Part shown: positions 10,310 through 28,246 of the stretch, piece after piece
Layout of the letters: every line of letters starts with the position of its first letter
How positions within the stretch are numbered: the first letter of the stretch is position 1
NCBI GenBank assembly: GCA_036503755.1
Contig: DASXWI010000080.1
Coordinates: forward strand, 1 to 48,435
Direction of reading: 5' to 3'
Source: Saprospiraceae bacterium
GTDB lineage: Bacteria > Bacteroidota > Bacteroidia > Chitinophagales > Saprospiraceae
DNA length: 48,435 bases
Made by a program: the position numbers and the translations under genes
The notes under the pieces: generated by a model
Told to the model about the DNA's origin: nothing
What the model saw: the letters and a program-made list of their open reading frames with translations, nothing else
Database searches by the model: none

Positions 10310-10485
10310 CGGGGCCAAAGATACTTGAGAAAGCCATCTCGAATTTCTGCTATGATATTGATGAATTTTAATTTTAATACTTAATTATACCATCATCATT
10401 AGGGGTGTGGATTCGTGGATATTTATCTGTTCAAACATTTCCATATCCAAAACACCCTTTTTATGAACGTCAATTCACAGTATTA

Positions 10486-12339: not shown

Positions 12340-12499
12340 AGTAAAGTGGCTAAAGTATGTGCTCCTAAGATAGTTGATTTGTCTAGGATTCCGTTATGGT
12401 GGGTGACCAGGGATACATATTTCACCAGACCCCAAACGACCGTTTTTAGGAAAGTAAATATTCATGTTATCTTTCGGGGCTCTAACAAAATATAAAGGC

Positions 12500-13579
12500 A
12501 TGTCATTGACCATTGGTGTCCTGAAAGAAAGTAAAGACAAACGGGTTGCTATAACTCCGGAGAATATTAAGCGTTCCAAGGTTAAGGATGCAACCTGGTG
12601 GATTGAAGGTGGAGCAGGGACCGAAGCAGGATTTAGTGATTCTACCTATTCCGGGTTGGCCATTGTCAAGGACAGGGCGTCCATACTAAAAGGAGCAGAT
12701 ATTATTGTGACCATCTTTCCTCCTTCAGATAATGATTGTACACAAATTCATTCTGGTGCACTACTTATATCACAATTCAGGCCGTACCAGGATGAAACGG
12801 TAAACACAAAGCTTTCGCAATATCCATTTCGTTCTCTGAGTATGGATATGATTCCAAGGACCACCTTAGCCCAGGCTATGGATGTTCTTTCCTCAATGGC
12901 ATCCATTGCGGGGTATAAAGCAGTATTACTTGCCGCACAAAATTTGCCCCGTTATTTTCCAATGATGATTACGTCTGCAGGGAGCATAAAACCATCAAAA
13001 GTATTAGTCATTGGTGCCGGAGTGGCTGGTCTTCAGGCTATCGCTACCTCCAGAAAATTAGGAGCCGTTGTAGAAGCTTTTGATGTGAGATCAGCAGCAA
13101 AGGAAGAGGTCCAAAGTCTTGGGGCCAAATTTGTTGAAGTTGAAGGAGCAAAGGACGATAAAGGAGCCGGCGGTTATGCGGTGCAACAATCCGAAGAGTA
13201 TCTGGCTCGTCAACGTGCAGAAGTACAAGCCAGGGCCTCAAAGGCGGACGTCATCATTTGCACCGCCCAGGTTCGTGGACGTAAAGCGCCAGTATTAATT
13301 GAAGCTGATACCGTCAACAACATGCGTCACGGCTCAGTGATTGTTGATCTTGCGGCGTCTACAGGGGGTAATTGCGCATTAACCCAAAATGATAAGACCA
13401 TCCAGGTAAATGGAGTAACCATTATTGGAAACTCTTCTTTAGAATGTGAAATGCCGGAAGATGCCAGCCAGATGTATGGAAATAATATTCTGAATCTACT
13501 TGCCCACATCACCAAGGATGGGGCACTCAATCTGAATATGGAAGACGAGATTGTGAAAGGATCATTGATAAAACCATAA
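12500..13579 (+). CDS. pntA: NAD(P) transhydrogenase alpha subunit, soluble dI (NAD(H)-binding) component only
   Basis: VLVIGAGVAGLQAIATSRKLGAVVEAFDVR Rossmann motif and GGYA...SEEY segment typical of PntA dI. I prefer the ATG at 12500 (MSLTIGVLKE) over 12464. No TM (dII) region and no pntB follow. Confidence 0.75.
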   Translation: MSLTIGVLKESKDKRVAITPENIKRSKVKDATWWIEGGAGTEAGFSDSTYSGLAIVKDRASILKGADIIVTIFPPSDNDCTQIHSGALLISQFRPYQDETVNTKLSQYPFRSLSMDMIPRTTLAQAMDVLSSMASIAGYKAVLLAAQNLPRYFPMMITSAGSIKPSKVLVIGAGVAGLQAIATSRKLGAVVEAFDVRSAAKEEVQSLGAKFVEVEGAKDDKGAGGYAVQQSEEYLARQRAEVQARASKADVIICTAQVRGRKAPVLIEADTVNNMRHGSVIVDLAASTGGNCALTQNDKTIQVNGVTIIGNSSLECEMPEDASQMYGNNILNLLAHITKDGALNLNMEDEIVKGSLIKP

Positions 13580-13733: not shown

Positions 13734-14603
13734 ATGACTAGTTTAACACATCGCATTTATATAAGTGTCCTTATTGCAATAGGGGTCATCACATTTATCC
13801 TACTGGTCTATTGGGGTTACTCCTACTATAATACAGGTATCGAAGAACGACCTTTTCATGAAGATCATACTGCATTAAAACCCAGCGGTCCGATAGGTCA
13901 CGGACTTGGCATCCTGGGCACCTTACTCATCCTCATAGGGGTATTTTCTTATATCGGAAGAAAGAAGAAAAAATTTCTTCCAAATTTTGGTGCCCTGAAA
14001 TATTGGCTCGAATTCCACATATTCCTGTGTTCGGTTGGTCCCTTGTTAATACTGTTTCATACAGCTTTTAAGTTCGGTGGTATAGTTTCTATAAGTTTCT
14101 GGAGCATGGTGGCGGTAGTTTTAAGTGGAATTATTGGCCGTTTCATCTATATACAAATTCCGAGGACAATCCAGGGACGGGAATTAAGCCTGGCAGAGAT
14201 CAAGGAGATGAAAGATGTCATGAACCGGGAATTGACCGAGAAGTATGGTTTGGATGAATCCATCTATTTCAGGTTGATCCATTCCACACAACTTGAATTT
14301 GAATATGCAGACAAAGACTTCTTGACAAGATCGATCAAAAGAATCGCACATCATCGACAGGTAAAACAGGAGGTGAATAAAATTCTGCAGCAAACCAAGT
14401 TAGCCCATCGGGAAAAACGGGGAGTAATGAAATTAGTAAATAACGAAATGACGATCAACAACAAGATCAGGCGATTACATACAATGCAAATGCTTTTTAA
14501 ATACTGGCATGTAGCCCATCTTCCGTTTGCGTTGATCATGCTTATCATCATGGTGATTCATGTAGCGATTACGATTGCCTTTGGGTATAAATGGATTTTT
14601 TAA
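13734..14603 (+). CDS. Five-TM membrane protein with a long cytoplasmic helical loop; candidate di-heme b transmembrane electron carrier
   Basis: TM helices at about aa 7-28, 57-75, 91-112, 117-140 and 258-284. TM3 carries His95 and His109; TM5 carries His262 and His276 (both H-x13-H), plus His259. RKKKK follows TM2 and the aa 141-257 loop is basic, which places those regions in the cytoplasm. The heme-b role is inference. Confidence 0.6.
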   Translation: MTSLTHRIYISVLIAIGVITFILLVYWGYSYYNTGIEERPFHEDHTALKPSGPIGHGLGILGTLLILIGVFSYIGRKKKKFLPNFGALKYWLEFHIFLCSVGPLLILFHTAFKFGGIVSISFWSMVAVVLSGIIGRFIYIQIPRTIQGRELSLAEIKEMKDVMNRELTEKYGLDESIYFRLIHSTQLEFEYADKDFLTRSIKRIAHHRQVKQEVNKILQQTKLAHREKRGVMKLVNNEMTINNKIRRLHTMQMLFKYWHVAHLPFALIMLIIMVIHVAITIAFGYKWIF

Positions 14604-14604
14604 A

Positions 14605-15945
14605 ATGGAAGTGTTCCTCGAGAAGACAATTATTTATTCCATTGTAGCAGGGCTCATTATGCTGACCCTGTATATTTATGTAAGAAAACTTCAAAGTACA
14701 ACCAGAAAAACAGAAGCCAAGATCCATAAAGCGAAAGAGGAGGGATTACATGAGCCCGTCTCGCTTCATCCGGAAATAGATGTGAATACCTGCATTCAAA
14801 GCGGAGCTTGTATAGAGGCTTGTCCGGAAAAAGAAATCATTGGCATCCGGAATGGGAAAGCAACACTGATCAATGCATCACGATGTGTGGGGCATGGGGC
14901 TTGTTTCCATGCATGTCCGGTTGAAGCTATTTCCCTTGTCATTGGAACAGAAAAAAGAGGAGTAGATCTCCCGCATATTAAGCAAGATTTTGAAACCAAC
15001 GTTAAAGGCATTTATATAGCCGGCGAACTTGGCGGGATGGGGTTGATTAAGAATAGTGTTGAACAAGGCAAGCAAGCCGTGAACAATATCGCCCGTGCGG
15101 TTTCGAAAGCAAAAGAAACAGAATATGACCTGGTGATTGTTGGTGCAGGACCCGCAGGAATTTCTGCCTCCCTCGAAGCTAAAAAGCAAGGATTAAAATG
15201 TATTACACTTGAGCAGGATACACTTGGAGGTACGGTCTTTTCTTTTCCAAGATCCAAGATTGTGATGACCTCCCCGATGGATCTCCCTTTGTTCGGAAAA
15301 GTAAAACTGACAGAAACTAAAAAATCTGAACTACTTGATCTGTGGAACAAAGTATTAGGGAACAATCAAATAGTGATAAAGGAAAACACCAAGGTTGAAT
15401 CCATTTCAAAAGCCGGCGAACATTTTAGAATAGTGGTAAATGAGGGAGAAGAATATATCACCAAATCGGTTCTGCTAGCCATTGGAAGAAGAGGTTCACC
15501 CAGAAAACTAAATGTGGCAGGGGAACATCTGGAAAAGGTAGCCTATCGTCTGTTAGAACCGGAATTGATTGAAGGGAAAAATATCGTCGTTGCCGGAGGC
15601 GGTGATTCAGCAATTGAGGCGGCACTCTCCTTGGCGGATCATAACAAAGTAGTACTTACCTACCGGGGGGAAGCGTTTCAACGAATTAAACCAAAGAACA
15701 GTGAGAAAATAAACCAGGCGATCGCAGATCAGAAAATAGACGTCATCTTCAATTCAACTATAGCCTTAATAGAGAAAGAGAATGTAACCCTGACACTTCC
15801 AAATAACGATAAGGTTAAGATACCTAATGACCTGGTTTATATTTTTGCAGGAGGAGAATTGCCAACACAGTTTTTACAAAAAGCAGGAATTGAAATTACG
15901 ACCCGATTTGGACATGCGCTGTTGAAACATGGGAAAAACAGGTAA
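14605..15945 (+). CDS. Membrane-anchored ferredoxin-like domain fused to a thioredoxin-reductase-type FAD/NAD(P)H oxidoreductase with no redox CxxC
   Basis: I prefer the ATG at 14605, 1 nt after the upstream stop. One N-terminal TM helix is followed by a basic stretch. There are two Fe-S-like motifs, CIQSGACIEACP and CVGHGACFHACP. FAD motif DLVIVGAGPAGISAS; NAD(P)H motif KNIVVAGGGDSAIEAA. Confidence 0.75.
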   Translation: MEVFLEKTIIYSIVAGLIMLTLYIYVRKLQSTTRKTEAKIHKAKEEGLHEPVSLHPEIDVNTCIQSGACIEACPEKEIIGIRNGKATLINASRCVGHGACFHACPVEAISLVIGTEKRGVDLPHIKQDFETNVKGIYIAGELGGMGLIKNSVEQGKQAVNNIARAVSKAKETEYDLVIVGAGPAGISASLEAKKQGLKCITLEQDTLGGTVFSFPRSKIVMTSPMDLPLFGKVKLTETKKSELLDLWNKVLGNNQIVIKENTKVESISKAGEHFRIVVNEGEEYITKSVLLAIGRRGSPRKLNVAGEHLEKVAYRLLEPELIEGKNIVVAGGGDSAIEAALSLADHNKVVLTYRGEAFQRIKPKNSEKINQAIADQKIDVIFNSTIALIEKENVTLTLPNNDKVKIPNDLVYIFAGGELPTQFLQKAGIEITTRFGHALLKHGKNR

Positions 15946-15946
15946 T

Positions 15947-17794
15947 ATGCTCAGAACGAAAACATATTTCTTTTTTTGGTGCTTCCTTCTTTCAGGGCTA
16001 ATCGTCGTTTTATATAGTGGAAATGCATGTGGTCAGATATCACCGGGAGATCTTTCCAATCCTCATGCCCATCTTGAGGGAATACTCAACTGCACCAAGT
16101 GCCATGTATTGGGTGAAAAAGTAACCAACGAAAAATGTCTTGATTGCCACAAAGAAATCAAATCGCGTGTTGATCAGAAAAAGGGATACCATGCTTCGGC
16201 AGAGGTAACCGGAAAGGATTGTTTTTCCTGTCATAGCGATCATCATGGAAGGCAGTTTGAAATCATACGTTTTGACACAGAAAAATTCAATCACCAGCTT
16301 ACAGGATATAAACTAACCGGTGCCCATGCTAAGGTAGATTGTAAAGCTTGTCACAAGGATGAAAGAATAGAATCTGCTGAGCTTCGAAAGAAAGAGGAGA
16401 CCTATCTTGGTTTAAAAAACGAATGTGTAGCCTGTCATAAAGATGTCCACAGAAACACACTTTCTACGGATTGCAAATCTTGTCACAACACAGATGCTTT
16501 CGCGCCTGCTACGCTGTTTGACCATGCTAAAACAGACTTTCCGCTCAAAGGCAAACACAAAGAAGCGGATTGTAACCGTTGCCATGAAGTAACCTTCGAA
16601 AACAGTGCACTCTATCAGCGGTTTTCAGGTGTCCCGTTTAATAGTTGTGTAGTCTGCCATGATGATGTACATCATGGCCGCCTTGGAACAGATTGTAAAG
16701 AATGTCATACCGAAACATCCTTTACTGTCTTTGCGGGCAAGAGTACTTTCAACCATAGCGAAACCGATTTTCCATTACTAGGCAAACATAGAATACTCGA
16801 TTGCGCAGCATGTCATAAAACAGGAGCGGAGACCACTGCAGATAGGGTTTTCAAGGATTATTCAGCAAAGGATTTCAACGCCTGTATAACATGCCATGAT
16901 GATGTTCATGAATCAAGACTTGGTACAGATTGCAGGAGGTGTCATACCGAAGAGTCCTTTCAAAAACAAAGGAATGCCGAAAACTTTGATCACACCCTGA
17001 CAGGATATGTGCTTGAAGGGAAACACAAGAAGGTGGATTGTAAATCCTGCCATACATCCAAAATGACAGATCCGCTTCTTCACAATCGTTGTGCAGACTG
17101 TCATGAGGATTTTCATAAAGGTCAGTTCATCAACGAAACCAAAAATCCAGACTGCAGGATTTGTCACAATACAGAAGGATTTTCAGGTTCTGTGTATACC
17201 ATTGAAATGCACAATGAAGGTTCTTTTCCTTTAACGGGTGCACACCTGGCGACACCATGCAATGCGTGTCACCAAAAAAATGATGAATGGACATTTAGAA
17301 ATATAGGTACTCAATGTGTCGATTGTCACACGGATTTACACGAAGGTTTTCTGTCGGAGAAATACTATCCCAAGAAATCATGTAACCAATGTCATATACC
17401 TGATGCCTGGACAGAAGTAGATTTTGAACACCAACAAACCGGATTCAAACTTGAAGGAAAGCATTTGCAAACCTCCTGCACAACGTGCCACAAGTCAGAT
17501 CCTGTTGAAAAAAGTAAAATTCCTTTTACAGGCCTCAATACTGAATGTACAAGCTGTCATGATAACGCCCATGATCGCCAATTTGAGATTGACGGCGTTA
17601 CAGATTGTAGACGTTGCCATTTATTTGAAACATGGAAGCCAAGCCAGTTTGATCATAACACCGCAAGGTTTGTATTGGATGGAAAACACAAACAGGTTGA
17701 TTGCCGTGAATGCCATCGATCTGAAACAATTGATGGAAGGGAAATCATCCAATACAAACTTGATGATTTCACTTGCGCGGCGTGTCACCTTTAA
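15947..17794 (+). CDS. Multiheme cytochrome c with 23 CXXCH motifs, built from cytochrome c7/c3-like repeats
   Basis: I counted 23 CXXCH in about 615 aa. The recurring unit is CxxCHxDVHxxxLGxDCxxCH...FxHxxTxFxLxGKHxxxxCxxCH. Signal peptide MLRTKTYFFFWCFLLSGLIVVLYSGNAC (possible lipobox). The ATG at 15947 lies 1 nt after the upstream stop; the track start at 15929 would overlap. Confidence 0.9.
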   Translation: MLRTKTYFFFWCFLLSGLIVVLYSGNACGQISPGDLSNPHAHLEGILNCTKCHVLGEKVTNEKCLDCHKEIKSRVDQKKGYHASAEVTGKDCFSCHSDHHGRQFEIIRFDTEKFNHQLTGYKLTGAHAKVDCKACHKDERIESAELRKKEETYLGLKNECVACHKDVHRNTLSTDCKSCHNTDAFAPATLFDHAKTDFPLKGKHKEADCNRCHEVTFENSALYQRFSGVPFNSCVVCHDDVHHGRLGTDCKECHTETSFTVFAGKSTFNHSETDFPLLGKHRILDCAACHKTGAETTADRVFKDYSAKDFNACITCHDDVHESRLGTDCRRCHTEESFQKQRNAENFDHTLTGYVLEGKHKKVDCKSCHTSKMTDPLLHNRCADCHEDFHKGQFINETKNPDCRICHNTEGFSGSVYTIEMHNEGSFPLTGAHLATPCNACHQKNDEWTFRNIGTQCVDCHTDLHEGFLSEKYYPKKSCNQCHIPDAWTEVDFEHQQTGFKLEGKHLQTSCTTCHKSDPVEKSKIPFTGLNTECTSCHDNAHDRQFEIDGVTDCRRCHLFETWKPSQFDHNTARFVLDGKHKQVDCRECHRSETIDGREIIQYKLDDFTCAACHL

Positions 17795-18028: not shown

Positions 18029-21000
18029 ATGAACCGGATAAAAGGTGTTGTGAGTGGAATCTTGATGTTGTGCGCCTATACGTACATAGGCGGGCAATCT
18101 CCGCATGGTCAGGAACTCCGGATCAGTTGTGATGCCTGCCATACTTCTGAAGGTTGGAATATTAACAAAGACTCCATAGCGTTCCTCCACAACACAACTA
18201 CATTTCCACTAGAAGGCCAACACGAAGTAATTGACTGTAGACAATGTCATACCTCACTTGAATTTAAAAAAGCTGAATCCAATTGTGCGTCATGCCACCT
18301 TGATATTCATCAGAATACTGTAGGAGATGAATGCGCCAGGTGCCATGATTCCAACACCTGGCTTGTTAACAATATAGCGGAGATCCATCGGCAGATTTCT
18401 TTCCCACTTCAAGGTGCGCATGCTGTTGCCAACTGTGTAGAGTGTCATACTTCAGATTCAGAATTAAGATTTGACCCGATCGCGTCAGATTGCTATAGTT
18501 GTCACCAGGATGATTATGGAGCTACCACAAACCCCGAACATCAGAAAGCTGGATTTTCAACGGACTGCATTACCTGCCACCAGGTAGATGCTTTTGCCTG
18601 GGATGCTGAAGGGATTAACCACGATTTCTTTCCGCTAACTGCGGGTCACCAAATTGATGAATGTGCGAAGTGTCACACCGGAGCGGATTACACTAAAATT
18701 TCACCCGAGTGCATTACTTGTCATGAACAGGATTATCTGGCAACTACCAATCCAAATCATCAGGTTGCAGGGATAAGCACTAATTGTGTGGAATGCCATA
18801 CAACACAACCGGATTGGAAACCAGCCGACTTCCGGGAACACGACAATCTTTATTTTCCAATATATAGTGGAGCACACAAAGGAACCTGGGACCAATGTTT
18901 AGCGTGCCATACGGATCCAAATAATTATACCAGTTTTACCTGTATATCCTGTCATGCTAATCCGGATACTGATAACGAACATAGCGGAGTGTTTGGATAT
19001 TCATACAACAGCACAGCATGCCTGGCATGTCACCCAAATGGGGAGAAGGAGGGCTCGTTTAATCATGACAACACCAACTTTGCTTTGACAGGTGCACACA
19101 CGATGGTGGAATGCCTTCAATGCCACAGCAATGGATTTACAGGGACGCCAACAGCTTGTTTTGCCTGCCATGAACCGGACTTTAATCAATCTACCAACCC
19201 AAACCACTCAAGTCTAGGACTTTCGACAGATTGTGTTTCATGTCACACCACGGATCCTGAATGGAACCCGGCTTCATTTGACAATCATAATGAATTTTAT
19301 GTGTTGAATGGTGCTCATGCCATCATAGCCAATCAGTGTGCATCGTGTCATAACGGAGATTATAATAACACGCCATCCACATGCGTGGGTTGTCACCAGG
19401 AGGATTATAATCAGACCACAACTCCATCGCATACCGCGCTATCCTTTTCAACAGAGTGCAGCATGTGTCACAATGAAAATGCGTGGGTGCCATCCTCCTT
19501 TGATCATGACGGCCAGTATTTTCCGATTTATAGCGGATCACACCAGGGAGAATGGGCTGATTGTATTGATTGTCATACCACACCAGGAAATTTTGCACTA
19601 TTTACTTGTGTGACTTGCCATGCCAATCCGGAAACCACGGAAGAACATACCGGAGTCGCCGGTTATCTCTACAACAGCAATGCCTGTCTTGCGTGTCATC
19701 CAAATGGAGAAGCAGATGGTGCCTTTGATCATAGTACCACCAATTTTCCACTGACGGGTGCGCATCAAACAGTTGATTGTTTCCTGTGCCATGTTAGTGG
19801 CTTTGAAGGAACGCCAACAGATTGTCAAAGCTGTCACACTCCTGATTTTAACCAGGCCTCAAACCCTAATCATAACGCCCTTGGTTTTTCTATTGATTGT
19901 GCCACATGCCACACTACAGCGCCTGGGTGGAATCCTGCGTCTCTCGACAATCACAATGATTATTATGTACTATCCGGAGCACATGCTGTAGTAGCCAATC
20001 AATGTGCATCCTGCCACAATGGTGATTATCTCACCACACCTAATACTTGCTCAGGTTGTCATCAGGAAGATTTCAATCAAACGGTAAACCCGCCGCACCT
20101 GGCTCTTCAGTTTTCAACAGATTGCGCAAGTTGCCATAGTGAATCTGCCTGGACACCTTCAACATTTGAACACGATGTGCAATATTTCCCGATTTATTCA
20201 GGAGCGCATCAGGGAGCCTGGACACAATGCAATGAATGCCACACCACACCAGGAAATTATTCACTTTATACATGCACAACCTGCCATACTAGTCCTGAAA
20301 CAGATGAAGAACATGCTGGTGTGAACGGCTTTATTTTTAACAGCACAGCTTGTCTTGCCTGTCATCCAACCGGGGAAAGTGATGTTAATTTTGATCACAA
20401 CACCACCTCCTTTCCATTGACAGGTGGACACAATGGACCCACATGCCTGGAGTGCCACGCTACAGGATTTGAAGGAACCCCGACAGAATGTAGCGCATGC
20501 CATCTTGATGATTTCAACCAGGCCATCAATCCAAACCATTTGACGCTGGGCATATCAAATGATTGCGCATCGTGTCATACCACTGAACCGGGATGGTCAC
20601 CAGCATCGTTTGCTGTACACAATGATTATTATCCATTTAATGGTGCACATATCCCAATAGCAAATCAATGTGCTACCTGTCATAACGGAGACTACAATAC
20701 TACACCAAACACTTGTGCAGGTTGCCACCAGGAAGATTATAATCAAACAACGGATCCATCGCACCTGGCACTTCAGTTTTCACAAGATTGCGCAAGTTGT
20801 CATTCGGAAAACGCATGGGAACCATCAACCTACGATCATGATGCACAGCACTTCCCGATTTACAGCGGATCCCATCAGGGAGTCTGGACACAATGCAATG
20901 AATGCCACACCACACCAGGAAATTATACTTTGTTTACCTGTGTCACTTGCCATACCAATCCTGAAACCAATGATGAACATGCCGGGGTGAATGGCTATTC

Positions 21001-22606
21001 ATACAACAGCAATGCATGCCTGGCTTGTCATCCTAATGGAGAGGGTGAGTTTGGTTTTGATCACAACAACACCAGCTTTCCACTTACGGGTGCCCATACC
21101 ACTATAAACTGCCTGGATTGTCATGCCAATGGATATGAAGGAACACCAACTGATTGTGCGGCATGCCATACAACACATTACAACGAAAGTACCAATCCAA
21201 ACCATAGTGCACTTGGCATTCCAACAGACTGCGTTTCTTGTCACACGACAGCTCCTGAATGGAATCCGGCTGCCTTTCCGCTCCATAACAATTATTACAC
21301 ACTAGCAGGAGCACATTCCTTAATTGCAGATCAATGTGTCACTTGTCATCAGGGCGATTATAACAACACTCCTAATACTTGCGTCGGTTGTCATCAAGCG
21401 GATTACAATCAAACAACCAACCCCAACCATTTAACCTTACAAATCTCCACGGATTGTGCTAGTTGTCATTCAGAAAGCAACTGGATACCTGCAAGTATGT
21501 CCAATCATAATGATTATTATGTTCTCCAAGGTGCGCATGCTCCTATTTCAAATGAATGTGCGCAATGTCATAATGGAAATTATAACAACACTCCAAATAC
21601 CTGTTATGGCTGTCATCAGGAAGATTATGAGCAAGCTAATAATCCTTCACATCTATCACTTGGATTTGGAACCGACTGTACGACTTGTCACACAGAGACA
21701 GCGTGGTCACCGGCAGAATACACCGATCACGATGACCAATATTTCCCCATATACAGTGGTGGGCACGAGGGAGCATGGGATCAGTGTAATGACTGCCACA
21801 CCAATCCAAACAACTACTCCATATATACCTGTGTGACTTGTCACACCAGCGGTGAAACTGGCCAGCAACATGTCGGAGTCAACGGCTATTTTTATGAGAG
21901 TGGTGCATGTCTCGCATGTCATCCCGATGGAGATACACAAGGATCATTCAATCACAATGATTCTGATTTTCCACTGACAGGGGCACATAATACGGTAGCC
22001 TGTATAGAATGTCACAGCAATGGCTATCAGAACACCCCCACGGCATGTAGTGCCTGTCATACGCCAGATTTCAACGGGTCAACCAATCCAAACCATAATT
22101 CCCTGGGATTATCAATGGAGTGTGTGACGTGTCACACTACAGCTCCTGAGTGGAACCCGGCTTTATTTCCAGATCATAATGATTATTATCCGCTGGTAGG
22201 GGCGCATGCCGCGATATCAGATCAATGCGTCACGTGTCACAATGGAAACTATAATAACACACCAAACACGTGTGTTGGCTGCCACCAATCTGAATACAAT
22301 AACACGAACGATCCTGATCACCAGGCAGCGCAATTCCCAACCAGTTGTGAAACCTGTCATAATCAAAATGCCTGGGTTCCATCCACCTGGGATCATGATG
22401 ATCTCTATTTCCCGATTTACAGCGGGAAACATGAAGATGAATGGAATCAATGTAATGACTGTCACACCAATCCAAATAATTATTCTGTGTTTACCTGTAT
22501 CACGTGTCATCAGCAAAATGAAACCGATGAGGATCATGATGAAGTAGGTGGATATCAATACAACAGTAGCGCTTGCCTGGCGTGTCACCCGGATGGCGAA
22601 GACTAA
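18029..22606 (+). CDS. Giant multiheme cytochrome c with 61 CXXCH motifs in 1525 aa
   Basis: ATG start with signal peptide MNRIKGVVSGILMLCAYTYIGGQ. By hand count, the motifs fall in six regions:
- N-terminal region, aa 1-342: 13
- module 343-564: 9
- module 565-785: 9
- module 786-1007: 9
- module 1008-1304: 12
- module 1305-1525: 9
As far as I can see, every Cys outside the signal peptide lies in a CXXCH. No T9SS C-terminal domain is present. Confidence 0.92.
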   Translation: MNRIKGVVSGILMLCAYTYIGGQSPHGQELRISCDACHTSEGWNINKDSIAFLHNTTTFPLEGQHEVIDCRQCHTSLEFKKAESNCASCHLDIHQNTVGDECARCHDSNTWLVNNIAEIHRQISFPLQGAHAVANCVECHTSDSELRFDPIASDCYSCHQDDYGATTNPEHQKAGFSTDCITCHQVDAFAWDAEGINHDFFPLTAGHQIDECAKCHTGADYTKISPECITCHEQDYLATTNPNHQVAGISTNCVECHTTQPDWKPADFREHDNLYFPIYSGAHKGTWDQCLACHTDPNNYTSFTCISCHANPDTDNEHSGVFGYSYNSTACLACHPNGEKEGSFNHDNTNFALTGAHTMVECLQCHSNGFTGTPTACFACHEPDFNQSTNPNHSSLGLSTDCVSCHTTDPEWNPASFDNHNEFYVLNGAHAIIANQCASCHNGDYNNTPSTCVGCHQEDYNQTTTPSHTALSFSTECSMCHNENAWVPSSFDHDGQYFPIYSGSHQGEWADCIDCHTTPGNFALFTCVTCHANPETTEEHTGVAGYLYNSNACLACHPNGEADGAFDHSTTNFPLTGAHQTVDCFLCHVSGFEGTPTDCQSCHTPDFNQASNPNHNALGFSIDCATCHTTAPGWNPASLDNHNDYYVLSGAHAVVANQCASCHNGDYLTTPNTCSGCHQEDFNQTVNPPHLALQFSTDCASCHSESAWTPSTFEHDVQYFPIYSGAHQGAWTQCNECHTTPGNYSLYTCTTCHTSPETDEEHAGVNGFIFNSTACLACHPTGESDVNFDHNTTSFPLTGGHNGPTCLECHATGFEGTPTECSACHLDDFNQAINPNHLTLGISNDCASCHTTEPGWSPASFAVHNDYYPFNGAHIPIANQCATCHNGDYNTTPNTCAGCHQEDYNQTTDPSHLALQFSQDCASCHSENAWEPSTYDHDAQHFPIYSGSHQGVWTQCNECHTTPGNYTLFTCVTCHTNPETNDEHAGVNGYSYNSNACLACHPNGEGEFGFDHNNTSFPLTGAHTTINCLDCHANGYEGTPTDCAACHTTHYNESTNPNHSALGIPTDCVSCHTTAPEWNPAAFPLHNNYYTLAGAHSLIADQCVTCHQGDYNNTPNTCVGCHQADYNQTTNPNHLTLQISTDCASCHSESNWIPASMSNHNDYYVLQGAHAPISNECAQCHNGNYNNTPNTCYGCHQEDYEQANNPSHLSLGFGTDCTTCHTETAWSPAEYTDHDDQYFPIYSGGHEGAWDQCNDCHTNPNNYSIYTCVTCHTSGETGQQHVGVNGYFYESGACLACHPDGDTQGSFNHNDSDFPLTGAHNTVACIECHSNGYQNTPTACSACHTPDFNGSTNPNHNSLGLSMECVTCHTTAPEWNPALFPDHNDYYPLVGAHAAISDQCVTCHNGNYNNTPNTCVGCHQSEYNNTNDPDHQAAQFPTSCETCHNQNAWVPSTWDHDDLYFPIYSGKHEDEWNQCNDCHTNPNNYSVFTCITCHQQNETDEDHDEVGGYQYNSSACLACHPDGED
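19055..22603 (+). repeat. Five tandem coding repeats (about 666 bp / 222 aa, nine hemes each) inside the 61-heme gene; the fourth carries an extra internal copy of about 222 bp
   Basis: The module consensus recurs in the protein: NFPLTGAH..C..CH..GF.GTPT.C..CH.PDFNQ..NPNH, then YFPIYSG.H.G.W..C..CHT, then ACLACHP.GE. An identical 43-nt run occurs at 20218-20260 and 20884-20926, exactly 666 bp apart. Confidence 0.9.
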
Positions 22607-22625
22607 TGAAAGCAGGAAGAAAGGA

Positions 22626-24254
22626 ATGAGATATTTTATTGCGCTTATTTGGATGATGATGACCTCTTTCGCATTACATGCACAGGAGAAAACCGACACG
22701 CTTGGAGGTGCAGTTACCTATCTTACTTCTCTGAGTGTTTATGTTAAGTTTCCGTCCACTACCTCCGTTTCAATAGGTGATACACTATTTGGGTTGGTCG
22801 ATGGAAAACTGCAACCATTTCTCACAGTCAAACATTTGTCATCTACTTCCTGTGTAGGAACACCCCTTACAACCATACCCATTCAAAAGGGTTCGCGGAT
22901 GTATGCAAGAATACGTAAAGAAGGGCCTTCCAAAAAAGATAGTATTGAAACCGACTCAATGTTTATCATACCAGAGGTTGTTATTTCGGATATCCAAAAG
23001 GAGGATGTAGCATCCATCAACAAACCGGTTGAATCCCACCCGATTGAAAAATCATCTTTTAAAGGAAGACTCTCGGCAGCAGCCTATATCAATTTTGCTG
23101 ATCACCCACAAAGCAATCAGCAAAGGATGCGTTATGTTTTAAATATGAATGCCCGACGTATCAATCACTCCGGTCTTTCTGCGGAGGTATATATGTCCTT
23201 CAGGCACACGCTAAATGAATGGGTAGAAGTCCAACAAGAGTTTCTCAGAGCCTTTAAAGTGTATAATCTGGCCCTGGAATATGATTTTAATCATGGAACA
23301 AAAATCTGGGCCGGACGAAAGATTAATTTCAACATTTCAAACATTGGTGCCATAGATGGTGTACAAGCCGAAAAGAAGTGGAAGAAATTCCTGGCAGGAG
23401 CTTTTGGAGGATCACGGCCGGATCATATGGACTATGGATTCAATCCGAACCTGGTGCAGTATGGTGGTTATTTCGGAAATAACATTGAACTCAAAAACGG
23501 GATAATCCAGAATACGTTGGCGCTGGTTGAGCAACGCAATAGTGGGATGACAGACCGGCGTTTTATGTATTTCCAACACATCAACTCATCGATACGAAGG
23601 GTATATCTTTTTACATCTTTCGAATTTGACTTATACACCCTGGATAACGAAAAACCTAAAAACACTTTTGATATCACCAGCTTGTATATTTCTGCTCGTT
23701 ATCGTGTTTCAGACAAGCTTTCTTTCTTTGCTTCTTTTGATTCAAGAAATAATGTTATTTATTATGAAACGTATAAACATTTTATCGACCAACTCCTGGA
23801 AGAAGAAACCCGGCAAGGATTCAGGCTTAGTTTTAATTACCGGCCCATCAAAAAAATGACAATTGGAGCTAATGCGGGATACAGATATCAGCAGGATACA
23901 CCGGGTAATTCAAAAAACCTGAATACATATATCACCTATTCAAGAATACCGGGATTAAATGTTTCAGCTACTGCAAACCTGACCCTGATTCATTCCCCAT
24001 ATCTCGATGGCATTGTTTATGGGGTAAGATTTTCCAGGGACATTGTAGAGGGTAAACTTTTTGGCGAATTTCAGTACCGGATTGCTGAATATGGATATAC
24101 GAATGTTGAAATCCCTATTCAACAAACCATCATGGGATTGAACCTCTCGTGGAGGATAACCAGGATGTTGTCTTTTTCCGCGAACTATGAAACAGAGATT
24201 CAGCATCAAAGGTGGAACAACCGGATTTACACTAATCTTATCCAACGCTTCTAA
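22626..24254 (+). CDS. Outer-membrane beta-barrel (porin-like) protein
   Basis: I prefer the ATG at 22626, which gives signal peptide MRYFIALIWMMMTSFALHAQ. The track start at 22548 is a GTG inside the cytochrome gene, and an alternative ATG lies at 22593. The second half has alternating hydrophobic/aromatic strands, and the C-terminal residue is Phe (NLIQRF). Confidence 0.6.
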   Translation: MRYFIALIWMMMTSFALHAQEKTDTLGGAVTYLTSLSVYVKFPSTTSVSIGDTLFGLVDGKLQPFLTVKHLSSTSCVGTPLTTIPIQKGSRMYARIRKEGPSKKDSIETDSMFIIPEVVISDIQKEDVASINKPVESHPIEKSSFKGRLSAAAYINFADHPQSNQQRMRYVLNMNARRINHSGLSAEVYMSFRHTLNEWVEVQQEFLRAFKVYNLALEYDFNHGTKIWAGRKINFNISNIGAIDGVQAEKKWKKFLAGAFGGSRPDHMDYGFNPNLVQYGGYFGNNIELKNGIIQNTLALVEQRNSGMTDRRFMYFQHINSSIRRVYLFTSFEFDLYTLDNEKPKNTFDITSLYISARYRVSDKLSFFASFDSRNNVIYYETYKHFIDQLLEEETRQGFRLSFNYRPIKKMTIGANAGYRYQQDTPGNSKNLNTYITYSRIPGLNVSATANLTLIHSPYLDGIVYGVRFSRDIVEGKLFGEFQYRIAEYGYTNVEIPIQQTIMGLNLSWRITRMLSFSANYETEIQHQRWNNRIYTNLIQRF

Positions 24255-24325
24255 CGATGATTCCTTTGGTTATGCAGGCGATGCGCAGTATCTTAAAGGT
24301 TTATTTATTAAATAATCTACCACAC

Positions 24326-25063
24326 ATGAAAACGTTTATATACCTCTTGTTATTAAGTGCCCTGGTTTGGTCATGTGATTCAAAACCAAAAGTCATTGAA
24401 TCGGTTGATGCCACTGAAGAAACACAACAAGATGCTTCTGATCCAAATGCATCAAAATTGCATAAGGTCGTAGTAGAAGAAGTCCTGCAGACATCAAAAT
24501 ATACATATCTGAACGTAACGGAAGATGGAGCGAAAATCTGGATTGCTGTGCCCAAAAAGGATGTTAAAGTCGGGGGTACGTATTATTACCGAGGTGGTTT
24601 GAAAAAGAACAATTTCAAGAGTGTGGAATTTGATCGTGTATTTGAAACATTATATCTCGTTTCCGATGTAAGTGAAGATCCGGGATTGGGCGGGATGACA
24701 GGCAGCAGCCCACATGGTGGAAAAGCAGAGGAACCTCAACTTGATCAAACCACTAAATTAGATCCACCACCAGGAGGCATTTCAATTGCCGAATTATTTA
24801 AGAACCGTCAGAAATATGAGGGACAAACCGTCAAGATCAAAGGAAGGTGTGTTAAACTCAACACGAACATCATGAACCGCAACTGGATTCATCTTCAGGA
24901 TGGATCTATGACCGATGAGCAAATTGATCTTACTGTGACGACTACAGACAAAGTAGCATTAGGTGAAATAGTAACCTTTGAAGGAAAGATTACCCTGAAT
25001 AAAGATTTTGGTGCAGGGTATAAATATGAAATCATCATGGAAGAAGCCCATCTCTTACCATAA
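24326..25063 (+). CDS. Lipoprotein with two OB-fold-like halves, function unknown
   Basis: The ATG at 24326 gives MKTFIYLLLLSALVWSCDSK (lipobox Cys). Two halves have similar beta-rich patterns (TYLNVTEDGAKIWIAVP... and TVKIKGRCVKLNTNIMNRNWIHLQDGS...). The OB-fold call is pattern-based only. Confidence 0.45.
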   Translation: MKTFIYLLLLSALVWSCDSKPKVIESVDATEETQQDASDPNASKLHKVVVEEVLQTSKYTYLNVTEDGAKIWIAVPKKDVKVGGTYYYRGGLKKNNFKSVEFDRVFETLYLVSDVSEDPGLGGMTGSSPHGGKAEEPQLDQTTKLDPPPGGISIAELFKNRQKYEGQTVKIKGRCVKLNTNIMNRNWIHLQDGSMTDEQIDLTVTTTDKVALGEIVTFEGKITLNKDFGAGYKYEIIMEEAHLLP

Positions 25064-25129: not shown

Positions 25130-28100
25130 ATGAAACGTTTATTTAATTCTTTTTTCTCTACCAGCGCAGCAGGCCTTTATATGATCCTGTTTGCCCTGGC
25201 CATCGGTGTGGCTACGTTTGTGGAAAACGATTTTGGTACCAGTGCAGCCCAAAAGGTCATCTTTAAGGCCAGATGGTTTGAACTCCTCCTGGTTCTTTTT
25301 GGTATCTCTATAGCAGCCAATATTGTTCGATATAAAATGGTCCGTCAGAAAAAATGGGCCATCCTTACATTCCACGCTTCTATCTTAATCATATTACTGG
25401 GAGCAGGTATCACCCGATATTTCAGTTACGAGGGGATGATGCATATTCGTGAAGACAGCACATCAAACACATTTATTTCGGCAGATACCTATCTCAACTT
25501 TGAAGCTAAACAACATGGCAAGAAATTCCTTTTTAATGAACCTGTCCTTTTTGCATCCCTTGGTAAAAACAAATTCAAGGAAACCTACCAGATCGGAAAT
25601 GATATCATAGACGTCGAATTAGATGCCTTTATACCCAATCCGGAAAATACACTGGAGGCGATACCCGATGGTAACGCGGTTTTAAAACTAGTGATTGCCG
25701 GAATGAATGGACGCGAAGAATATTATCTCGAAGAAGGAGATTTCGTCAACCTGAATGGAACCTGGTTTAATTTCGGCAACCCGGAGCAACCCCAGGCAAT
25801 CAATATGTATTACCGGAATGACTCCCTGGTGATGAAATCACCTGAAGTCCTTGCGCATATGGTAATGGCTACACAAGCGAAAGACACTATTTACCCCGGA
25901 GCGTATGTACCCTTAGTGATCCGGTCACTGTATTCCAATGCCAACATCAATTTTGTGATTGGTGATTTTAATCCAAGCGCGAAGCTGATGATGAAATCGG
26001 CTGGACCCAAAATGAAAAGTGAAAGCATCGCGGCACTCAAATTGAAAATCAGCATCAACGGGACCCCTTCAGATATCTATGTATACGGAAACAAAGGGAT
26101 AGAAGGAAAACCGGAAAAAGCAAGGGCCGGTGATACAGAGCTTTCCATTTCTTATGGTGCCAAACAGATCAGCCTCCCATTCTCTCTGAAGTTGCGTGAT
26201 TTTATTCTTGAGCGGTATCCAGGAACGAACAGTGCTTCCTCCTACGCTAGCGAAGTGACACTGATCGATCCAGCAAAAGGGATCAATAAGGAGCAACGCA
26301 TCTATATGAACAACATCCTGGATTATGGAGGATATAGGTTTTTCCAATCTTCCTTTGACCAGGATGAATTGGGGACCGTTCTTAGTGTAAATCATGATTT
26401 CTGGGGTACATGGATTTCGTATATCGGCTATGCCTTACTGACGATAGGGCTGATTCTCACCTTATTCAGTAAAAAGAGCAGGTTCAGTGAAATTTCAAGG
26501 AAACTGGATGAAATCCGCCAGGTAGAAAAGAAAGGTGCCATGTCGGGAATCACTATAATGATGTTGTTCCTTTCTACCGGGTCACTTTTTGGCAACAGCA
26601 TCAACGAATCACCACGACATAGTGTGTCCAAAGCACATGCTGCCTTGTTTGGCCGCCTTGTGGTCCAGGATGATAATGGAAGGATGAAACCAATGAATAC
26701 CCTTTCCAGTGAAGTGATGCGTAAAGTGGCAAGGAAAGAAAGTTTGTTTGGACTTACGGCGGATCAAATCTTCCTCGGCATGACGTTGTATCCGGAAGAG
26801 TGGACGCAGATGCCGATGATTAAAATCGGATCAAACGAAGAGATCAGAAAACTCATTCCTGCCAAAGGAGAATTAGCTTCTTTCAATGATTTTTTTACAT
26901 CCAGTGGTCAATATGTTTTACGGGAACAAGTCCGCAGGGCGTATAGCTTGCAGCCAATTGACAGAACATTGATGGATAAGGAAATCATGAAGATCGATGA
27001 GCGTGTCAATATCTGTAACATGATCTTTAGTGGAGCAATGGCGCGGATATATCCTATAGAAAACCATCCAGGGGATCATTGGATTTCTCCAGCAGATGTA
27101 TTTAAACAAACTGCCGATATCAGTCCGGATCCATTTGTCAGGGGGTTTTTTCCAACATACGTTACTGCTGTACAGGAAGCCATGGCAGATGGAAACTGGA
27201 GTAAGGCGGATCAACAGGTCGAAGCACTTCAACAATTTCAGCATGCTAAAGGTGGAGACATTGTGGTTTCGCAGCGAAGGATTGATATGGAAATCCTGCT
27301 CAACAAGATGAATGTCTTTTCAAGACTGAGTAAGGGCTATGGATTAATTGGGCTCGTCTTTTTGATATTGTTTTTCACGCAGGTTTTTAAACCCGGCCTG
27401 AATCTAAAGACACCAACGCGAATCACCTTTTTTATTCTGGCTGCTTTCTTTCTCCTGCACACGGCAGGGCTGGGGATCAGGTGGTATGTTTCCGGTCGTG
27501 CGCCATGGAGCAATGGGTATGAGTCCATGATTTATATAGGGTTCACCACGGTATTGGCCGGATTGATTTTTGCAAGAAATTCATTAGGCGGATTAACAGC
27601 TACAAGCATATTGGCATCTACCATTCTCATGGTGGCAGGGTTGAGCTGGCTTGATCCCGAAATCACCCCATTAGTTCCAGTCCTTAAATCGTATTGGTTA
27701 ACTATTCATGTATCCATGGAAGCTGGTAGTTATGGTTTTTTAATGTTGGGAGCGATCATTGGGTTGTTGAATCTTATTCTCATGATCTTTCTCAACAAGT
27801 CAAATGAGACACGCTTATTCCGGACGATTAAGGAGATGACCTATGTTAGTGAGATGACCCTGATCGGCGGATTGATCATGGTCAGTATTGGGACTTACCT
27901 GGGTGGAGTATGGGCCAATGAATCGTGGGGAAGATACTGGGGATGGGATGCCAAAGAAACGTGGGCATTGGTGACTATACTTGTGTATGCGTTTATTCTT
28001 CACATGAGATTTATACCAGGATTAAGAGGATTGTATGCATTCAATGTAGCGTCCTTGTTTGGATTTGCATCCGTCATGATGACATATTTTGGAGTGAACT

Positions 28101-28246
28101 ACTATCTATCTGGTCTTCACTCGTATGCTGCAGGAGATCCGGTACCTTTGCCCCCTTCTGTTTATTATACAGCTGCAGTGTTTCTTGCTTCCAGTTTATT
28201 AGGATATTGGAAATACAGGAGACATCATCCCCCGATGCATGTTTAA
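25130..28246 (+). CDS. ccsBA: System II cytochrome c biogenesis protein, fused CcsB(ResB)-CcsA heme lyase
   Basis: 1038 aa. The N-terminal part is ResB-like, with TM helices and a large periplasmic domain. The C-terminal part is polytopic and carries the WWD motif WGRYWGWDAKETWALV, with conserved His in flanking helices. Confidence 0.9.
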   Translation: MKRLFNSFFSTSAAGLYMILFALAIGVATFVENDFGTSAAQKVIFKARWFELLLVLFGISIAANIVRYKMVRQKKWAILTFHASILIILLGAGITRYFSYEGMMHIREDSTSNTFISADTYLNFEAKQHGKKFLFNEPVLFASLGKNKFKETYQIGNDIIDVELDAFIPNPENTLEAIPDGNAVLKLVIAGMNGREEYYLEEGDFVNLNGTWFNFGNPEQPQAINMYYRNDSLVMKSPEVLAHMVMATQAKDTIYPGAYVPLVIRSLYSNANINFVIGDFNPSAKLMMKSAGPKMKSESIAALKLKISINGTPSDIYVYGNKGIEGKPEKARAGDTELSISYGAKQISLPFSLKLRDFILERYPGTNSASSYASEVTLIDPAKGINKEQRIYMNNILDYGGYRFFQSSFDQDELGTVLSVNHDFWGTWISYIGYALLTIGLILTLFSKKSRFSEISRKLDEIRQVEKKGAMSGITIMMLFLSTGSLFGNSINESPRHSVSKAHAALFGRLVVQDDNGRMKPMNTLSSEVMRKVARKESLFGLTADQIFLGMTLYPEEWTQMPMIKIGSNEEIRKLIPAKGELASFNDFFTSSGQYVLREQVRRAYSLQPIDRTLMDKEIMKIDERVNICNMIFSGAMARIYPIENHPGDHWISPADVFKQTADISPDPFVRGFFPTYVTAVQEAMADGNWSKADQQVEALQQFQHAKGGDIVVSQRRIDMEILLNKMNVFSRLSKGYGLIGLVFLILFFTQVFKPGLNLKTPTRITFFILAAFFLLHTAGLGIRWYVSGRAPWSNGYESMIYIGFTTVLAGLIFARNSLGGLTATSILASTILMVAGLSWLDPEITPLVPVLKSYWLTIHVSMEAGSYGFLMLGAIIGLLNLILMIFLNKSNETRLFRTIKEMTYVSEMTLIGGLIMVSIGTYLGGVWANESWGRYWGWDAKETWALVTILVYAFILHMRFIPGLRGLYAFNVASLFGFASVMMTYFGVNYYLSGLHSYAAGDPVPLPPSVYYTAAVFLASSLLGYWKYRRHHPPMHV

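Follow-up and report, generated by a model that had tools for sequence, protein, structure and literature searches.

A candidate NAD(P)H-fed inner-membrane entry module for a porin-multiheme-cytochrome conduit in a Saprospiraceae bacterium

The gene pair and its locus

The contig DASXWI010000080.1 of a Saprospiraceae bacterium (assembly GCA_036503755.1) was analyzed from position 1 to 48,435 of its forward strand, and this whole stretch of 48,435 nucleotides is referred to below as the window. Within it, two adjacent genes on the forward strand encode a putative di-heme b transmembrane electron carrier of the inner membrane, 289 residues long with five predicted transmembrane helices (13734..14603), and a membrane-anchored iron-sulfur (Fe-S) flavoprotein of 446 residues (14605..15945). 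Genes for multiheme c-type cytochromes and a putative outer-membrane barrel follow. An earlier reading of the same letters (hereafter the original prediction) had proposed that the two proteins rebuild, from separate polypeptides, an electron path resembling that of the NOX and ferric reductase families. The present analysis considers what this gene pair may contribute to the cytochromes beside it.

The open reading frame (ORF) of the membrane protein and the codons of its four proposed heme ligands lie where the original prediction had placed them. His95 (14016..14018) sits on the cytoplasmic side of helix 3 and is a candidate ligand of an inner heme, while His109 (14058..14060), at the periplasmic end of the same helix, is a candidate ligand of an outer heme. 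Helix 5 would supply the second ligand of each: His262 (14517..14519) on the cytoplasmic side, within the motif W258-H259-x-x-H262-x-P, and His276 (14559..14561) on the periplasmic side. The two histidines of each helix are 14 positions apart.

The membrane protein

Hydropathy marks hydrophobic segments at approximately residues 10-23, 61-67, 99-113, 120-134 and 263-280. An AlphaFold2 model built from an alignment of 88 sequences spanning 27-81% identity reached a predicted local distance difference test score (pLDDT) of 93.1 and a predicted template modeling score of 0.84; an earlier AlphaFold run on 20 close homologues, with a pLDDT of 65, was discarded. Hydropathy and the model together place five transmembrane helices at about residues 3-32, 53-78, 88-109, 116-140 and 258-282, the last of which continues a cytoplasmic helix beginning at residue 225 (225-282 in the model).

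Charge counts over the same 88 sequences give 5.8 Lys/Arg versus 0.1 Asp/Glu in loop 76-89 and 20.5 Lys/Arg in the insert at 141-257; loop 111-116 and the C-terminus, which ends 7 residues past helix 5, are almost without charge. Because Lys and Arg crowd loop 76-89 and the insert, an N-in topology is predicted by the positive-inside rule. Helices 3 and 5 would then both run from the cytoplasm to the periplasm, and therefore His95 and His262 would lie toward the inner face and His109 and His276 toward the outer face. The modeled helices and the charge counts thus agree with the earlier proposal that each of the two helices carries one histidine per leaflet.

The insert of about 115 residues between helices 4 and 5 had also been proposed as a docking site for the reductase. 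Its basic and helical character holds, with an isoelectric point of 9.9 in the window protein and a helical region at 153-219 in the model. The docking role finds no support: the insert is the least conserved region, and the flavoprotein is more conserved within Bacteroidota (60-84% identity) than the membrane protein itself (50-74%).

The family to which the membrane protein belongs is large. More than 7000 relatives are present in a database clustered at 90%, 2980 representatives of 50%-identity clusters match at E <= 1e-3, and every annotation among the family members listed is either unnamed or "hypothetical protein". Histidine conservation was assessed in 103 full-length sequences, each representing one 50%-identity cluster and sharing 27-60% identity with the query (median 34%). 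His95 is retained in 99% of them, His109 in 100%, His262 in 93% and His276 in 96%; His259 follows at 87%, and the remaining nine histidines range from 2 to 67%. In the 88-sequence alignment the four transmembrane histidines are invariant or at least 90% conserved, with His262 and His276 invariant, and none of the four varies in a further alignment made of 25 distant members. The conservation anticipated for the four ligands is therefore borne out. In two database "proteins", P0269 (886 residues) and P0191 (418 residues), garbled stretches connect the membrane protein with sequence of a cytochrome or the flavoprotein; these entries resemble gene calls across the operon that are frameshifted or chimeric, and not true fusions.

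The flavoprotein

The mechanically called ORF of the flavoprotein opens at TTG 14575. However, the ATG at 14605, one nucleotide past the TAA stop of the membrane-protein gene, yields an N-terminus (MEVFLEK...) in agreement with the conserved N-terminus of homologues from several phyla, and this is the start that the original prediction had chosen. The protein opens with a hydrophobic helix (residues 8-26; 14626..14682) identified by hydropathy and followed by a segment rich in Lys and Arg, a layout shared with six homologues of other phyla and present in all phyla sampled. No twin-arginine motif was found in the N-terminus. With an anchor and a basic stretch but no such motif, the catalytic domains are therefore predicted to be cytoplasmic, as the use of NAD(P)H requires.

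Next comes a ferredoxin-like domain (residues 56-112; 14770..14940) with the motifs C63-x2-S-x2-C69-x3-C73-P and C94-x2-H97-x2-C100-x3-C104-P, whose six cysteines and His97 are invariant in 77 sequences. Position 66 of the first motif, Ser here, is variable in Bacteroidota and is Cys in other phyla, which gives the normal CxxCxxCxxxCP; the second motif, C-x2-H-x2-C-x3-CP, is retained in five of six distant homologues. The canonical second Cys is therefore missing from both cluster motifs of the window flavoprotein. Such an absence is the classical signature of [3Fe-4S] clusters or of [4Fe-4S] clusters with a non-Cys ligand, and clusters of this kind adjoin heme b in succinate dehydrogenase and nitrate reductase. 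The motifs suggest that the flavoprotein holds a [3Fe-4S] cluster, a His-ligated [4Fe-4S] cluster, or both. By analogy, a non-canonical cluster fits a role as the exit cluster toward heme b, although the fit is no proof.

The remainder of the protein is a module that binds two dinucleotides, flavin adenine dinucleotide (FAD) and NAD(P)H (residues 174-438; 15124..15918), through GAGPAG and GGGDSA...TYR-x5-R, respectively. Pfam models for the thioredoxin reductase (TrxR)-type two-dinucleotide-binding fold and for a Fer4 dicluster domain match above their cut-offs (Pyr_redox_3, 148 bits with a cut-off of 30; Pyr_redox_2, 100 bits; Fer4_10, 38.7 bits with a cut-off of 25.5). Among PDB structures, YpdA/Bdr (7a7b, E 2e-27) comes closest, together with a ferredoxin-NADP reductase of the TrxR type (3ab1, E 1e-16). 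After the NAD(P)H motif GGGDSA the sequence continues with (S/T)YR-x5-R(I)K, and since NADPH-binding proteins typically have basic residues here, a preference for NADPH is suggested.

Neither of the two closest enzymatic identities applies. Thioredoxin reductase is rejected by a TIGR01292 score of 84 bits against a cut-off of 343 and by the lack of any CxxC outside the ferredoxin domain, a lack common to the window protein, 76 Bacteroidota homologues and six distant homologues. YpdA/Bdr, the bacillithiol disulfide reductase, is rejected by a TIGR04018 score of 168 bits against 340; the conserved Cys of YpdA lies in a GxGPCG motif, in place of which the flavoprotein has GAGPAG, and the flavoprotein carries a transmembrane anchor and a ferredoxin domain in addition. 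The earlier description of a tethered, cytoplasm-facing ferredoxin fused to a TrxR-type module without a redox CxxC is upheld, except that the reductase has the TrxR fold and not the FNR fold.

Two further observations concern this protein. The segment TNVKGIYIAGELGG... (residues 124-172; window 14974-15120) precedes the first GxGxxG and aligns weakly (domain E of about 110) with residues 275-324 of YpdA, its C-terminal FAD-binding segment, which hints that the TrxR-like module may be circularly permuted relative to YpdA and TrxR. Separately, in some Lewinellaceae and Saprospiraceae genomes the flavoprotein has a paralogue that is 58-59% identical and is encoded a few kb downstream, on the opposite strand (L006, 14401-15840 on the minus strand; also L010 and L049), with no second membrane-protein gene beside it.

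Downstream genes and linkage across phyla

Immediately after the gene pair lies the gene of a periplasmic multiheme cytochrome c of 621 residues with 23 CxxCH motifs (15929..17794), the proposed direct electron acceptor. Its orthologues in other phyla have 20 CxxCH and directly adjoin the membrane gene; the count is exactly 20 in nearly all complete copies outside Bacteroidota (L083, L085-L089, L100-L179), and so constant a length could correspond to a set distance to be bridged, for instance that across the periplasm. A second multiheme cytochrome c of 1525 residues and 61 CxxCH (18029..22606) is built from 222-residue repeats that hold about nine hemes each (44% self-identity at a lag of 222). 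Since its orthologues in other genomes carry from 10 to 52 hemes, this gene grows and shrinks by repeat number.

The next gene encodes a putative outer-membrane barrel of about 540 residues with a signal peptide and a C-terminal Phe (22626..24254, or from 22593, as its start codon is uncertain). Searches of Pfam, NCBIfam and the PDB gave no match for this porin-like protein. A porin-cytochrome conduit of the Mtr/Pcc type comprises a periplasmic multiheme cytochrome, an outer-membrane beta-barrel and an outer cytochrome whose genes lie together; the parts present here are the 23- and 61-heme cytochromes and a signal-peptide protein whose identity as a barrel is putative. An accessory protein of 268 residues with a lipoprotein-like signal (24257..25063) is found in only some related clusters, and a ResB-CcsA fusion of 1038 residues (25130..28246), assigned by Pfam ResB and Cytochrom_C_asm to system II cytochrome c biogenesis, closes the cluster. 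The latter scores 177.7 bits against TIGR03144 (CcsB), slightly under the cut-off of 187.6. All of these genes are on the forward strand.

To judge how constant this arrangement is, gene neighborhoods were compared in three sets of loci. The first consists of the best 80 of at least 569 relatives of the membrane protein in a scan of one genome per species. All 80 are Bacteroidota, drawn from Saprospiraceae, Lewinellaceae, Bacteroidales, Prolixibacteraceae, Marinilabiliales, Rikenellaceae, Cyclobacteriaceae and Flavobacteriales. The flavoprotein gene lies directly 3' of the membrane gene in every one, and cytochrome genes follow the pair in 75, with three others ending at a contig edge. Most often the membrane protein comes first and the flavoprotein second; after them come a cytochrome of about 20-23 hemes, another cytochrome whose size varies, the 540-residue porin-like protein, in some loci the 268-residue lipoprotein, and finally ResB-CcsA.

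The second set comprises seven loci of other phyla: one from a complete Zixibacteria genome (CP070813.1), one from Schekmanbacteria and five more. Each of them encodes the membrane protein, multiheme cytochromes including the second cytochrome, and the Fe-S flavoprotein. The 20-heme cytochrome is intact in six and fragmented in the Schekmanbacteria locus (L084), and a porin-like gene was detected in six. In these phyla the gene of the flavoprotein frequently stands at the end or is transcribed from the other strand. The third set was obtained by scanning metagenome contigs with a distant sub-alignment of the membrane protein. Of the 47 loci flanked by 2 kb or more, 45 have a cytochrome next to the membrane gene, and the one that follows this gene directly is almost always a cytochrome with exactly 20 CxxCH. 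Where at least 7 kb of downstream sequence is available, cytochromes are present in 15 of 15 loci, the flavoprotein in 14 and the porin-like gene in 11. The oxidoreductase thus stays with the cluster in Bacteroidota, in distant phyla and in nearly all long metagenome loci.

A constant composition despite a shuffled order is strong evidence that the membrane protein, the flavoprotein and the cytochromes would act as one functional unit. In the contexts examined, no other inner-membrane redox protein, such as one of the NapC/CymA, NrfD or CbcL type, occurs in these clusters. NCBIfam models of cytochromes related to the quinol dehydrogenases of extracellular electron transfer (EET) match only the c-type cytochromes of the window cluster, below cut-off.

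Proposed electron path

With a probability of roughly 0.55, the gene pair is the inner-membrane entry module of a porin-multiheme-cytochrome electron conduit, fed by NAD(P)H without quinones. In this scheme, the flavoprotein, tethered to the cytoplasmic face by its N-terminal helix, would oxidize NAD(P)H, probably NADPH, at its TrxR-type FAD. Electrons would then cross the two Fe-S clusters singly, enter the inner heme b of the membrane protein (ligands His95 and His262), hop to the outer heme b (ligands His109 and His276) and exit to the 20-23-heme periplasmic cytochrome, followed by the second giant cytochrome and the outer-membrane barrel. Quinone would not be required between NAD(P)H and the cytochrome. 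The module may act as an electron sink that restores NAD(P)+, or may charge an 84-heme store; it would not be a coupling site.

Heme binding, complex formation, quinone independence, direction of flow and donor specificity are all properties that we infer from sequence. A path from NAD(P)H through FAD, Fe-S and two b hemes to cytochrome c would be the most economical reading because histidine geometry, conservation, topology, flavoprotein type and linkage all hold. The more specific picture of a hard-wired, quinone-independent wire, in which NAD(P)H, FAD, two Fe-S clusters, two b hemes, a periplasm-spanning 20-heme cytochrome, a porin and a giant cytochrome are joined in series, is put forward tentatively, at somewhat less than even odds.

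Several results weigh against this proposal. The window membrane protein scores only 15 bits against Ni_hydr_CYTB and 12.5 bits against DUF4405, both far under cut-off. Foldseek found no significant neighbor of the confident model in the PDB (best E 0.44), and the first membrane proteins in its list include cytochrome b561 (4o6y) and Dcytb (5zle), at an E of 1.2-2.9. When 11 MsrQ sequences from plasmid records were aligned and compared with the family by hhalign, the profile match covered helix 5 only (E 0.086, not significant), and comparisons with E. coli MsrQ (not significant) and E. coli CybB (E 0.12) likewise gave only local matches at helix 5. Two Bacteroidota loci (L022 and L034) contain the gene pair with no CxxCH-containing ORF within 6-8 kb. 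Lastly, MsrQ holds a bound ubiquinone (PMC12525009), and a quinone site in the membrane protein is therefore possible.

The weak matches have a pattern of their own. When the 88 members were scanned singly with Pfam, DUF4405 matched 61 (best E 5.7e-6), Ferric_reduct (PF01794) matched 33 (best E 2.6e-4, at most 20.6 bits against a 28-bit cut-off) and Ni_hydr_CYTB (PF01292) matched 25 (best E 1.1e-4, top score 22.4 against a 30.1-bit threshold), whereas no other Pfam family matched more than three. The recurrent similarities of the family are thus confined to heme-b families. They fall mostly in one register: helices 2-3 lie on Ferric_reduct positions 1-60, and helix 5 usually falls on the final histidine-bearing helix of DUF4405 (positions 41-66) and of Ni_hydr_CYTB (positions 131-168). 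The DUF4405 match of the window protein is confined to helix 5, over about 25 residues; in a few relatives helices 2-3 match instead. One distant member, P0330, clears the DUF4405 gathering threshold (28.1 versus 26.7 bits), and another, P0375, falls narrowly under it at 26.1 bits. The helix-5 match to the MsrQ alignment pairs W258, H262 and H276 with W147, H151 and H164.

Other searches gave no significant match. NCBIfam models gave no match to the window membrane protein, and PDB sequence searches with the protein and with the 88-sequence profile returned only coiled-coil noise on the insert. The helical insert also dominates the Foldseek comparison, in which the PDB list is headed by F-BAR and other long-helix proteins, and no NOX or STEAP is among the 50 best matches listed. 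The membrane protein probably belongs to an undescribed family at the fringe of the DUF4405/di-heme cytochrome b group, as judged from these sequence similarities.

The lack of a significant structural or profile match to any solved heme-b protein leaves room for a reading in which the membrane protein is not a heme protein at all, its four histidines binding another metal or serving structure or transport, and its neighborhood reflecting some other shared function. This is quite improbable, given that two H-x13-H pairs at matching depths on parallel helices constitute the classical bis-heme arrangement, that the recurrent, register-consistent weak matches go only to heme-b families, and that redox-protein partners stand on both sides of the membrane.

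The two loci without nearby cytochrome genes may mean that the pair serves other acceptors too, or that the cytochromes are encoded elsewhere. They also lend something to a different role, as does the ResB-CcsA gene in the cluster here and in several relatives: the pair could provide the periplasm with reductant for the assembly or upkeep of 84 c-type hemes, or for FRE-like iron reduction and uptake. Such a role is improbable, however, since system II biogenesis normally uses thiol reductants (CcdA/ResA) and not one-electron heme carriers, and since the closest partner of the membrane gene in other phyla is the 20-heme cytochrome and not CcsBA.

A greater challenge to the proposed NAD(P)H-fed module comes from quinones. 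The membrane protein could be a menaquinol:cytochrome c oxidoreductase, similar in function to CymA, CbcL or ImcH, or else a quinone reductase, with the flavoprotein feeding the quinone pool through it or acting apart. To our knowledge, every characterized Gram-negative EET pathway starts at a quinol dehydrogenase; moreover, Ni_hydr_CYTB, to which the membrane protein is weakly similar, is a quinone-reactive family, and the ubiquinone of MsrQ points the same way. On the other hand, an anchored cytoplasmic NAD(P)H flavoprotein is co-inherited in nearly every sufficiently long context examined and would be superfluous for a pure quinol oxidase, and no quinone-site motif was identified in the membrane protein. 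A quinone-linked function is unlikely on this balance.

As for direction, outward flow is favored because it is downhill from NAD(P)H and because negative charge would leave a cell that is negative inside. With electron export favored by the membrane potential, the module would therefore spend rather than make proton-motive force. The reverse has been contemplated as well, in that electrons from Fe(II), a cathode or partner cells could enter by way of the cytochromes, cross the membrane in the heme-b protein and reduce NAD(P)+. TrxR-type ferredoxin-NADP reductases are reversible and porin-cytochrome conduits can run either way; nevertheless, uptake would be uphill in redox potential for most donors, would move negative charge against the membrane potential with no coupling device present, and would have to operate in hosts that are organotrophic Bacteroidota. 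Inward flow is thus very improbable.

Comparison with known systems

A close parallel to the proposed module is found in NOX, FRE and SpNOX. A NOX is defined by six helices, bis-histidyl motifs in helices 3 and 5 and a fused FAD/NADPH dehydrogenase, and SpNOX is able to reduce cytochrome c directly (PMC5676040). The membrane protein has the bis-histidyl His-X12/14-His motifs of this group on transmembrane helices 3 and 5 running in the same direction (H95-x13-H109 and H262-x13-H276), shares the N-in topology of helices 1-5, and would follow the same logic from cytoplasmic NAD(P)H through a flavin, an inner heme b and an outer heme b to an outside acceptor. It differs in having five helices and an insert between helices 4 and 5, and in lacking the fused C-terminal dehydrogenase of the FNR fold with its HPF[TS] FAD and NADPH motifs. 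Instead, a separate TrxR-fold reductase is present with two Fe-S clusters between flavin and heme, and the acceptor would be a multiheme cytochrome rather than O2 or Fe(III) chelates. By this analogy, the system would work like a split NOX, yet it is better described as an analogue than as a NOX family member. The likeness that the original prediction drew to ferric reductases and NOX survives in the four-His geometry, and homology is not demonstrable from the hhalign and Foldseek results above and the sub-threshold Ferric_reduct scores. For the same reason, and because it has five helices and not six, the membrane protein was not assigned to the ferric reductase domain.

MsrQ (YedZ) and its partner Fre resemble the module in being two polypeptides, a heme-b protein in the membrane and an NAD(P)H oxidoreductase in the cytosol, that deliver electrons to a periplasmic redox protein. 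The helix-5 pattern W-x3-H151...H164 also recalls W258...H262...H276, at the non-significant E value already given. The MsrQ alignment has three invariant histidines (His91/His151/His164) versus four in the membrane protein, the FMN-binding R77/R78 belong to the MsrQ pattern, the acceptor there is the molybdoenzyme MsrP, and Fre is soluble and without Fe-S clusters. MsrQ is now described with one heme and flavin mononucleotide (FMN) (PMC12525009). It is therefore a looser analogue than NOX by cofactor count and a closer one by its two-polypeptide layout. Identity with MsrQ/YedZ was rejected, with helix 5 alone aligning and no msrP neighbor.

The flavinylation-associated cytochromes of DUF4405 (PF14358), considered here together with FezC, are the commonest weak Pfam match of the family and are likewise membrane proteins with four central conserved histidines. 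A purified DUF4405 protein binds heme b, and its four histidines have been likened to those of MsrQ and PepSY/FoxB (PMC11334425). The family is described as having six transmembrane helices and being tied to ApbE and flavinylated extracytosolic proteins (PMC11334425), whereas an Fe-S flavoprotein and c-type cytochromes accompany the membrane protein here. The window protein shares the four histidines but departs from this description in its five helices, and ApbE or FMN-binding genes are absent from the contexts examined. Cytochrome b561/Ni_hydr_CYTB, which has a four-helix di-heme core, was set aside as an identity, on the 15 bits scored against the 30.1-bit threshold and on the CybB comparison.

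Turning to systems that reach multiheme cytochromes, the Tmc and Hmc complexes of sulfate reducers join a cytoplasmic Fe-S protein and a periplasmic multiheme cytochrome c through a membrane cytochrome b, so that their electrons can bypass or parallel the quinone pool. Their cytochrome b is NarI/HdrE-like and their Fe-S proteins are of the HdrD-like CCG type; they lack an NAD(P)H flavin module, and their flow is thought to run inward to sulfate reduction. Their layout is similar to that of the module, and no homology was seen here. CymA, ImcH, CbcL and CbcBA occupy the same pathway position, as inner-membrane entries to periplasmic multiheme cytochromes and a porin-cytochrome conduit, but they are menaquinol oxidizers without an NAD(P)H-binding partner.

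Relation to earlier reports and significance

Giant multiheme cytochromes of uncultured Saprospiraceae have been noted without a mechanism or a known electron source (PMC11495043). In Lentimicrobium, a cluster of adjacent 61- and 20-heme cytochromes with a porin has been reported as being without synteny to known conduits (PMC13013709), and its heme counts agree with the present cluster type. No published description of the inner-membrane gene pair was found in open-access papers and bioRxiv. The EET clusters described from peat (bioRxiv 2026.05.27.727921) are systems of another kind.

If the proposal is correct, EET would have an alternative entry point, at NAD(P)H and across the inner membrane via two b hemes, with energetics of a different kind in which membrane potential is spent and NAD(P)+ is regenerated directly. 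The module would be the electron source for giant cytochromes of the Saprospiraceae and Lentimicrobium type, and hundreds of species, among them Bacteroidota, Zixibacteria, Calditrichota and Acidobacteriota, would possess the wire. Driven by the membrane potential, it could allow organotrophs, including nominal aerobes such as the Saprospiraceae of activated sludge, to dump or store reductant outside the respiratory chain. The proposal is testable with two small proteins.

Other features of the window

A gene for the heme A synthase CtaA (9257-10318, minus strand) lies 3.4 kb upstream of the module, and therefore the source organism probably also respires oxygen. Nearer to the module, 155 nucleotides upstream, a stand-alone gene of 371 residues (12464-13579, plus strand) covers no more of the transhydrogenase PntA than its soluble, NAD(H)-binding dI part (375 bits against NF006942, with a cut-off of 383), with no pntAB or pntB nearby. 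It was considered as a part of the module and rejected, as it is syntenic only in close, Opimibacter-like relatives.

Scans for sigma-70 promoters and terminators were uninformative, with counts equal to those of shuffled controls. Three ORFs have no Pfam match, at 29442-32381 (minus strand, 979 residues), 3530-4975 (plus strand, 481 residues) and 22548-24254 (plus strand, 568 residues). An ORF of 1315 residues at 38724-42671 on the minus strand bears a CHU_C type IX secretion signal.

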